Notes under the pieces: generated by a model | Told to the model about the DNA's origin: nothing | What the model saw: only the letters and a program-made list of their open reading frames with translations | Databases searched by the model: none | Part shown: positions 10,502 to 11,291 of the stretch, piece after piece | Layout of the letters: each line of letters starts with the position of its first letter | Numbering within the stretch: position 1 is the first letter of the stretch | Virus record (IMG/VR): IMGVR_UViG_3300009860_000879 | Length of the DNA: 12,857 nt | Reading direction: 5' to 3' (one strand) | Origin: a virus | Made by a program: the position numbers and the translations under genes

Positions 10502-10866
10502 TGACTATATTTAACTTATTCGGATTTATGAAAATTGAAGAAACAGATGCACACGTGCAGATTGATTATTACGAAATATTTAAGAAACATGGTTTATATC
10601 TTGGTCGATACATTTCAAGTTCAAAAGCTGCTCTTAAGGGCCATGTTGCAGTTTTTAATGGAAATATTGTTACTGAAAAAGCTGGTAAAATTTGGTATGG
10701 CGATTTAGATATTACTTTAGAATTTGATCAACTTAAGGAAATTGCTGATGAAATTGGTCAAGATCTTTATATTCTTGAAGAGTATAATGCCAGATTTAAT
10801 AAAGAAAATGCTGGATTTAAATATTGGAAAGAAAATGCAATTGAAATTATAAAATGTAAAAAATGA
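10501..10866 (+). CDS. Hypothetical protein (121 aa)
   Basis: Start overlaps the previous stop (TAATG). No recognisable domain. Confidence 0.4.
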   Translation: MTIFNLFGFMKIEETDAHVQIDYYEIFKKHGLYLGRYISSSKAALKGHVAVFNGNIVTEKAGKIWYGDLDITLEFDQLKEIADEIGQDLYILEEYNARFNKENAGFKYWKENAIEIIKCKK

Positions 10867-11291
10867 AAAAATTATTTATTCTACTAGCTTTAGTATTTGG
10901 GTTTATATCTTGTGATAAGAAAACTGATAAAGAAAACTCTGTTCCGACTGTATCTTCAGAAATTATTCCAGTTGATTCTTCTTATTATGAAGAAGTAAGA
11001 TATGTTTCTGGTAAGCATTTTACATCTTCTGGGCTCTATAATTTACACTGTAAAATGTGTCATGGAAATACTGGCGCAGGTGATGGTGTAGTTGCAAGAT
11101 ATCATAAAGAAGAATTCTGTCCTTATGATTTATCAAAAGTAAAAAAACCGGATCAGGAAGTTTATTATGTTGTATTAAATGGATCAGGATATATGCCAAA
11201 TGCTGAAAAACCAGTTTCAAAACATGTATTAACAAATGATGACATTTGGTTAGTTGTAGTATATATAAAAAAATTTAGAGATGAAAATTAA
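10863..11291 (+). CDS. Class I c-type cytochrome, lipoprotein-anchored (CXXCH heme-binding motif)
   Basis: N-terminal signal MKKLFILLALVFGFISC (lipobox). There is a CKMCHG heme-attachment motif. Downstream, GSGYMPNAEKPVSKHVLTNDDIWLVVVYI matches the class I cytochrome c pattern G.G.MP....L[ST]D.[ED]I..[LV].[AV]Y[IV], with Met as the sixth ligand. 142 aa. Confidence 0.7.
   Translation: MKKLFILLALVFGFISCDKKTDKENSVPTVSSEIIPVDSSYYEEVRYVSGKHFTSSGLYNLHCKMCHGNTGAGDGVVARYHKEEFCPYDLSKVKKPDQEVYYVVLNGSGYMPNAEKPVSKHVLTNDDIWLVVVYIKKFRDEN

Follow-up and report, generated by a model that had tools for sequence, protein, structure and literature searches.

The window analysed here (12,857 nucleotides; IMG/VR record IMGVR_UViG_3300009860_000879) contains a complete gene for a lipoprotein cytochrome c, at 10863..11291 on the + strand. 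Our preferred reading of its 142-residue product, to which we give a probability of about 0.55, is a tethered haem lipoprotein, matured by the host, which carries electrons in the respiratory chain of the infected cell. That the product is a class I c-type cytochrome precursor with one haem is well supported, both by sequence comparison and by a structure prediction. The gene is probably carried by a huge, Mahaphage-like bacteriophage, whose host is probably a member of the Bacteroidota.

The limits of the gene were taken from the ORF listing and the sequence. It starts with the ATG at 10863, which is backed by matching MKK... N-termini in homologues, and stops with the TAA at 11289-11291. The start codon shares bases with the TGA stop of the preceding ORF (ATGA), and the next ORF downstream begins at 11281, within the 3′ end of the cytochrome gene. 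All the long ORFs of the window are on the + strand, and the GC content of the gene is 29.1%, compared to 30.0% for the window. A scan for promoters and terminators between 9800 and 12100 gave no signal exceeding shuffled controls. The cytochrome gene is apparently transcribed together with the phage ORFs on either side. Recoding of TAG can be ruled out as a factor altering the gene, since it contains no in-frame TAG and its stop codon is TAA. The gene is under purifying selection, with dN/dS values of 0.17 and 0.15 against the two closest homologues for which DNA is available, synonymous sites being saturated in more distant pairs. The encoded protein is laid out as MKKLFILLALVFGFIS-C17, a polar stretch, and then ...LYNLHCKMCHGNTGAGDGVVARYHKEEFCPYDLSKV...LNGSGYMPNAEK...LTNDDIWLVVVYIKKFRDEN, and its C-terminal sequence is LTNDDIWLVVVYI. 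The first-pass annotation of this DNA had called a virus-encoded lipoprotein cytochrome c at 10863-11291, and the ORF lies at exactly these coordinates, with all the motifs that had been named.

The haem attachment motif CKMCH (residues 63-67; 11049..11063, + strand) is the single CxxCH site of the protein, and is located near the N-terminus of the cytochrome domain. It is invariant in 90/90 aligned sequences, made up of 65/65 members of the phage family and 25/25 cellular outgroups, and is found in all 74 sequences checked by pattern. Cys63 and Cys66 would provide the thioether attachment, and His67 would be the proximal ligand. The predicted distal ligand is Met111 (codon at nt 11193-11195, within GYMPN), which together with Pro112 occupies 11193..11198 on the + strand. 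Its position fits that of class I cytochromes, in which the distal methionine is found approximately 40-50 residues past the histidine. Met111 is present in 65/65 family members, where Pro112 is likewise invariant, and in 23/25 cellular outgroups, and in a profile alignment the Met-Pro pair of the family aligns with the KMP methionine of Kuenenia Kustc0562. The distal haem ligand of Kustc0562 is Met94 (PMC8388095), and we infer that this is the aligned methionine. The residues that are invariant down to about 30% identity are C63, C66, H67, G68, G71, G73, G75, C86, P87, G107, M111 and, very nearly, L123. The haem-binding site and the class I C-terminal signature with its methionine ligand were thus both read correctly from the letters by the earlier annotation.

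That annotation had also named two tests on which its claim should stand or fall, namely a profile search against PF00034/PF13442 and the conservation of CxxCH in homologues. The second has been given above, and the claim came through the first as well: the window protein scores above the curated Pfam cut-offs for both PF13442 Cytochrome_CBB3 (30.7 bits, where 27 are required; E 3.9e-7) and PF00034 Cytochrom_C (23.9 bits against 21.3), and most homologues receive the same assignments. When a profile of the family was compared with solved cytochromes, the best match was to Kuenenia stuttgartiensis c-552 (7o38, 1.9e-8), and ActE was matched at 5.4e-7 (6f0k_E), 9.9e-6 (6lod_E) and 0.045 (6btm_E).

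A structure prediction made from an alignment of 28 sequences was poor (pLDDT 48.6). The prediction was redone with a 90-sequence alignment that included cellular outgroups, and in this model the pLDDT is about 90 for the domain (residues 52-140), in which helices span 55-67, 97-106 and 125-141. The predicted structure is the all-alpha fold of class I, in which the terminal helices would pack round the haem. The C-terminal helix of this fold (LTNDDIWLVVVYIKKFRDEN; 11229..11288, + strand) corresponds to the model helix 125-141, which has a pLDDT of about 92 and follows the nearly invariant Leu123. The best match found by Foldseek is 6lod_E, the membrane-anchored ActE of Roseiflexus, over the full length. 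The structural neighbours include Kuenenia Kusta0087/0088 and the His/DOPA cytochrome 5xdh, all of which have unusual ligation. The viral structures of BFVD gave no fold match.

The Pfam scores exceed the cut-offs by no more than a modest margin, as might be expected if the protein were a decayed or non-haem lipoprotein that keeps a CxxCH-like motif, for example a structural or surface protein. We consider this very unlikely, given that the haem-binding and ligand residues are all invariant down to about 30% identity, that the gene shows purifying selection, and that a class I cytochrome fold is confidently predicted.

By sequence, the protein is a class I cytochrome outside every named subfamily, because no NCBIfam equivalog model comes near its cut-off. 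Among the equivalogs for c6 (PetJ), CcoP, c550, c551 and QcrC, the window protein scores highest with PRK14486, reaching 28.1 bits where the cut-off is 447, and the NCBIfam c6 model gave no match at all to the window protein. Membership of c550/c551 can be rejected in the same way, since matches to the NCBIfam models cytochro_C551 and cytochro_C550 are weak (15.8 vs 118 bits for the window protein, and 39.7 vs 118 for the best family member). The kinship to cytochrome c6/c55x that had been put forward for checking is therefore not specific, with no NCBIfam model reaching its curated cut-off.

The N-terminus consists of a putative signal peptide with a lipobox (10863..10913, + strand), made up of MKK, LFILLALVFGFIS and Cys17. 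The lipobox is MKKLFILLALVFGFIS|C, with Cys17 at nt 10911-10913, and Cys17 is predicted to be the lipidated first residue of the mature protein. The assignment was made with a PROSITE-type lipobox rule, which was applied to 72 family members. The proposed lipoprotein signal peptide is borne out by this rule in the window protein and likewise in 48/72 of the family; a further 21/72 carry a transmembrane anchor, that is, a strongly hydrophobic N-terminal segment without cysteine (a signal-anchor), and the remaining 3/72 are truncated. Every full-length member is thus predicted to be tethered to a membrane, because each has either a lipobox or a transmembrane anchor. Weak N-terminal matches were seen to the Bacteroidota lipoprotein models Riean_0653 and PG1828.

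The haem domain is joined to the lipid anchor by a flexible, poorly conserved linker (residues 18-51; 10914..11015, + strand), for which the pLDDT is 46-57 over residues 20-50. The length of this region varies and it is gapped in the alignments, as would be the case for a tether. The working site of the protein is most likely the periplasmic face of the cytoplasmic (inner) membrane, because about 30% of the orthologues swap the lipid anchor for a transmembrane helix, and for a transmembrane helix the cytoplasmic membrane is the sole possible site.

Two large-database searches found approximately 70 relatives with E < 1e-24, all of them metagenomic (JGI, ENA, Logan); no family member in the large-database search came from an NCBI genome. 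Past the family the score drops from 103 to 83 bits, and is followed by generic cellular mono- and dihaem cytochromes. When 1.84 billion representatives were searched exhaustively with a profile, 8 clusters were obtained at E values up to 1e-30. Peptide patterns specific to the family found nothing in 185,579 GTDB species genomes, and a looser pattern found only relatives that are 25-41% identical, from Chloroflexota, Acidobacteriota and one Flavobacteriaceae genome. The best cellular match is 41% identical over the domain. So far as sequences have been found, the family appears to be confined to phage-like contigs.

A tblastn search of 50,697 phage genome records matched the cytochrome in one genome only, a curated one from an uncultured phage, which has been deposited twice (735,411 bp; LR756501.1 = LR756503.1), with 37% identity over 96% of the query. 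LR756501.1 is the 735-kb genome of Al-Shayeb et al. 2020, in which the largest genomes belong to the Mahaphage clade, and the predicted hosts of phages > 634 kb, all of the Mahaphage clade, are Bacteroidetes (PMC7162821). The homologue in this genome is also a lipoprotein by sequence (...LFLGSCNN...), and an ORF at a distance of 2.5 kb from it hits large-terminase PHROGs at 4e-26. The whole 735-kb genome, put together from 15 pieces, has four genes in common with the window. These are the cytochrome (37% identity), a pyrimidine-dimer glycosylase (59% identity), a PTH2 peptidyl-tRNA hydrolase (52% identity) and a major-vault-protein-like gene of 818 aa (50% identity; 3900..6356, + strand; Pfam MVP_shoulder 2.6e-28, Vault_3 1.8e-11). 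Over 98% of its length, the vault-like protein has 49.5-54.6% identity to proteins of LR756500.1 (462 kb) and LR756501.1 (735 kb), and it forms the strongest link of the window to complete huge-phage genomes.

The window also contains an array of six tRNAs, an amber suppressor and, as the eighth, a tRNA-like element. The suppressor tRNA (CUA anticodon; 11978..12051, + strand; ARAGORN, Rfam 62.7 bits) lies 0.7 kb downstream of the cytochrome gene, and the 735-kb phage has two. It marks the window as belonging to a genome of huge-phage type, with probable read-through of TAG. Seven other contexts of the gene were inspected, and all are phage-like and typical of huge-phage dark matter, with many small ORFs that have no assigned function. 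The genes seen there include ClpS/ClpB, GroES/GroEL, a sigma factor, HNH, peptidase M23, thymidylate synthase and sugar-nucleotide enzymes. A scan of IMG/VR with family-specific peptide patterns found nothing, and a scan with a looser pattern turned up members of the family on four viral contigs, which are 18-155 kb long.

It could be argued that the window is cellular, either a bacterial island or a mis-binned fragment, and that the gene encodes an ordinary host cytochrome c. Pfam and PHROG searches found no capsid, tail or terminase gene in the window, and a nucleotide search gave no match to known phages. The viral origin of the window rests on homology and genome style. A cellular origin is nevertheless extremely improbable. 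Homologues are present in a complete phage genome near the large terminase and on viral contigs of IMG/VR. In the window there are eight tRNA genes, one of them the amber suppressor; every long ORF is on the same strand; some genes have 50-59% identity to genes of the 735-kb phage; and the family-specific patterns are missing from the GTDB species genomes, with looser relatives only 25-41% identical and no member from an NCBI genome. The homologue near the terminase, the four viral contigs and the three further common genes therefore uphold the description of the gene as virus-encoded. That it is an unusual gene for a phage is also confirmed, given that PHROGs has no family for the cytochrome, that BFVD has no match, and that it was found in just one phage genome among the records searched.

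The neighbourhood of the gene is variable. An all-against-all comparison of the window with 12 other loci found nothing in common except the cytochrome gene, and no respiratory partner gene is linked to it in any locus compared. The neighbours are not conserved, and linkage proposes no partner. The 735-kb genome has one cytochrome c gene. A search of the whole genome found no second exported CxxCH protein, and none of its ORFs of at least 50 aa contains the Trp-rich WWD motif of CcsA/CcmC/CcmF, as judged with a crude regular expression. Because the 735-kb phage shows no maturation system of its own, haem attachment, export and lipidation would be carried out by the host.

The closest working likeness is to ActE or to other tethered small cytochromes. 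ActE is the monohaem cytochrome c subunit in Alternative Complex III (Rhodothermus marinus 6f0k_E, Roseiflexus 6lod_E, Flavobacterium johnsoniae 6btm_E) and has the same arrangement of N-terminal anchor, linker and one class I domain. It works on the periplasmic side of the inner membrane, which is the site suggested for the phage protein. The phage protein is not an ActE, however, in that no act genes (actABCDEF) are present in the window or in seven other loci examined. Nor is there a specific kinship, since the profile matches to ActE (5.4e-7 to 0.045) are weaker than that to Kuenenia c-552 (1.9e-8). ActE also lacks the Cys86-Pro motif of the phage protein, having TP in 6f0k_E.

Kustc0562/0563 are small cytochrome c electron carriers (PMC8388095). 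The c-552 proteins (Kuenenia Kustc0562/0563, 7o38 and 5mxy; Thioalkalivibrio paradoxus c552, 9vr0) are small and soluble, and come from anammox or sulfur-oxidising bacteria. In contrast, the phage family is predicted to be tethered in every full-length member, has an invariant extra cysteine, and was found on phage-like contigs only. Bacillus has two small cytochromes, of which c-550 is held by a transmembrane anchor and c-551 is a lipoprotein. By analogy, the phage family may mirror this use of two types of anchor on a small monohaem domain.

The signature of the phage family is a third cysteine, Cys86. It is part of the motif CPYDL (11118..11132, + strand), in which it immediately precedes the proline of P-x-D-L. 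Pro87-x-Asp89-Leu90 is common with the cellular relatives, whereas Cys86 is specific to the family. In the 90-sequence alignment it is present in 65/65 family members and in 0/25 cellular outgroups, which have T, P, A or N at this position, and equivalents of the motif in cellular proteins are, for example, K-P-A-D-L and K-V-A-D-F. The CP.DL motif was present in 16/16 sequences inspected, each of them a cluster representative, and two of the GTDB relatives were translated and are both without Cys86. Its position, next to the proline and on the proximal haem side, suggests an additional property of the protein. A plain shuttle role leaves the invariant Cys86 without an explanation.

In the main rival reading, the protein would be a genuine haem c lipoprotein that does something other than respiratory shuttling, by way of the Cys86 thiol beside the haem. 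The options include a sensor of redox state or gas, a low-potential haem with switchable His/Cys ligation, a covalent (disulfide) partner for a protein of the host, which blocks or short-circuits host electron transport, peroxide detoxification, and haem capture. A function of this kind would fit the distribution of Cys86, the absence of linked respiratory genes, and the unusual ligation of the structural neighbours Kusta0087/0088 and 5xdh. It would also fit the far divergence from cellular cytochromes (at best 41% over the domain, with a sharp gap in score), which is unlike typical host-derived metabolic genes. On the other hand, Met111-Pro112 is conserved as strictly as in ordinary His/Met electron carriers, the nearest solved structures are ordinary small electron carriers, and respiratory carrier cytochromes are classically built with a membrane tether and a long linker. 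We regard a non-shuttle role as possible, and hold it tentatively.

A more far-reaching suggestion is that huge Bacteroidota phages own a lineage of respiratory haem proteins that has no cellular counterpart, in which the Cys86 thiol gives a function that ordinary cytochromes c lack. An example would be a redox-switched or covalently docking carrier that takes control of, reroutes or shuts down the periplasmic electron flow of the host. We think this rather unlikely. Cys86 provides a defined target for mutagenesis.

In the preferred reading, that of a tethered electron carrier, the protein would be exported by the Sec system of the host and lipidated on Cys17 by the host lipoprotein enzymes. 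The haem would be joined to Cys63 and Cys66 by the cytochrome c maturation system of the host, and His67 and Met111 would be its axial ligands. Located on the periplasmic face of the cytoplasmic membrane, the tethered haem domain would pass single electrons between the host quinol:cytochrome c oxidoreductase (Alternative Complex III or bc-type) and a terminal oxidase or reductase. The effect would be that respiration and the proton-motive force are sustained or redirected through the long infection cycle of a very large phage. A respiring host, and manipulation of its electron transport by the phage, which the first-pass annotation had proposed, may reasonably be supposed.

Outside cyanophages, we know of few phage genes that act directly on membrane electron transport. 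A SoxD c-type cytochrome is found in phages of sulfur oxidisers, soxD being part of the thiosulfate-oxidation (sox) pathway of the host (PMC8190135), and amoC-phages have a multihaem cytochrome of the NapC/NirT family, which groups with homologues from the predicted hosts (bioRxiv 10.64898/2026.06.18.733297). Like the present gene, both are phage-borne c-type cytochromes that have been read as auxiliary metabolic genes. The present family differs from them in having no close cellular counterpart and variable neighbourhoods, and in being a monohaem lipoprotein outside any assigned pathway. The word "cytochrome" is absent from the main text of Al-Shayeb et al. 2020 (PMC7162821), and a search of the literature on cytochromes of megaphages or huge phages found nothing relevant.

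The few c-type cytochromes reported from phages before can be linked to a host pathway that is recognisable, and one of them at least groups with host homologues. Here there is a discrete family of about 70 members, which spans very divergent huge phages and was not found in cellular genomes. If the protein is an electron carrier, the largest known phages would invest in keeping up or redirecting the energy metabolism of their hosts. Their hosts would then need a cytochrome c-dependent respiratory enzyme as well as a system for cytochrome c maturation, and this would give a handle on the identity and physiology of the host.

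A second contig, L006 (Logan SRR24667926, 6242 bp), corresponds to 5.5-11.7 kb of the window. The ORFs common to the two are 100% identical at the protein level, apart from a fragment at the contig end, which is 99.6% identical. L006 was assembled independently, from another sequencing run; the same phage has therefore been sampled at least twice.

The window encodes a major-vault-protein-like protein of 818 aa (3900-6356, +), with Pfam matches to MVP_shoulder (2.6e-28), Vault_3 (1.8e-11) and also Band_7. Two huge phages, LR756500.1 (462 kb) and the "Mahaphage" genome LR756501.1 (735 kb), have ORFs that align with 98% of this protein at 49.5-54.6% identity; the latter genome also carries a cytochrome homologue. 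The 'first viral MVPs' were reported for two gut phages in a 2023 preprint (10.1101/2023.11.10.566534), which apparently contains no discussion of an MVP gene in Mahaphage-type genomes.

The gene for PTH2 peptidyl-tRNA hydrolase (9951-10307, +; Pfam 1.4e-8) has an in-frame TAG shortly after its ATG, at 9975-9977. In the homologue from the 735-kb phage (LR756501.1 688150-688533), TAG occurs in frame twice, once within the conserved domain. In both genomes tRNA(CUA) genes are found within ~2 kb of the PTH2 gene, at 11978-12051 (+) in the window and at 690585-690738 in LR756501.1. The occurrence of in-frame TAGs in both PTH2 genes, together with tRNA(CUA) nearby in both genomes, suggests that the suppressor tRNA of the phage allows read-through of TAG here, which might serve as a timing device. 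Only one of the approximately 22 ORFs in the window uses TAG as its stop codon.

Further tRNA genes were located by ARAGORN as an array of six (Phe, Glu, Leu-UAA, Pro, Leu-UAG and Tyr; 27-1076, +). A tRNA-like element at 3242-3313 (+) was detected with Rfam (49 bits) and was not called by ARAGORN; when it is folded, the anticodon stem is unpaired. ARAGORN likewise reports tRNAs with odd anticodon loops in the 735-kb phage.

Other genes that could be assigned encode Hsp20 (1196-1654, +; Pfam 7e-14, phrog_432), a pyrimidine-dimer DNA glycosylase with 59% identity to that of the 735-kb phage (2112-2549, +; Pfam Pyr_excise 1.2e-24) and a radical SAM protein (8752-9612, +; Pfam 2.6e-9). Three consecutive ORFs (7349-7738, 7723-8277 and 8255-8752, all +) have no assignment in Pfam, PHROG or NCBIfam. 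They form a small paralogous family: all carry ...D(V/L)ITNSS(S/T)E(L/I)F... as an N-terminal motif, and identity between the second and third is 28%.

Beyond the cytochrome, the phage fragment encodes several predicted envelope-targeted proteins. Three more are predicted to be exported (3002-3238, 6443-6910 and 6921-7352, all +), and a family match was found for none of them. Two have lipoprotein-type N-termini (...MFSSCASS and ...LIVNSCETY), while the third, a protein rich in Gly, Tyr and Ser, carries a signal peptide that looks cleavable.

Within the cytochrome family, the members P0029 (190 aa) and P0178 (222 aa) are tandem duplications containing two complete cytochrome domains apiece, with a CxxCH and a CP.DL motif in every domain. 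They are thus dihaem versions of the phage cytochrome. On another contig bearing a family locus (L012, 15057-20447), the cytochrome homologue lies less than 10 kb from phage-encoded GroES/GroEL, a zf-CDGSH iron-sulfur domain protein and a CxxCxxCC protein, which may represent additional redox-related cargo of these phages.
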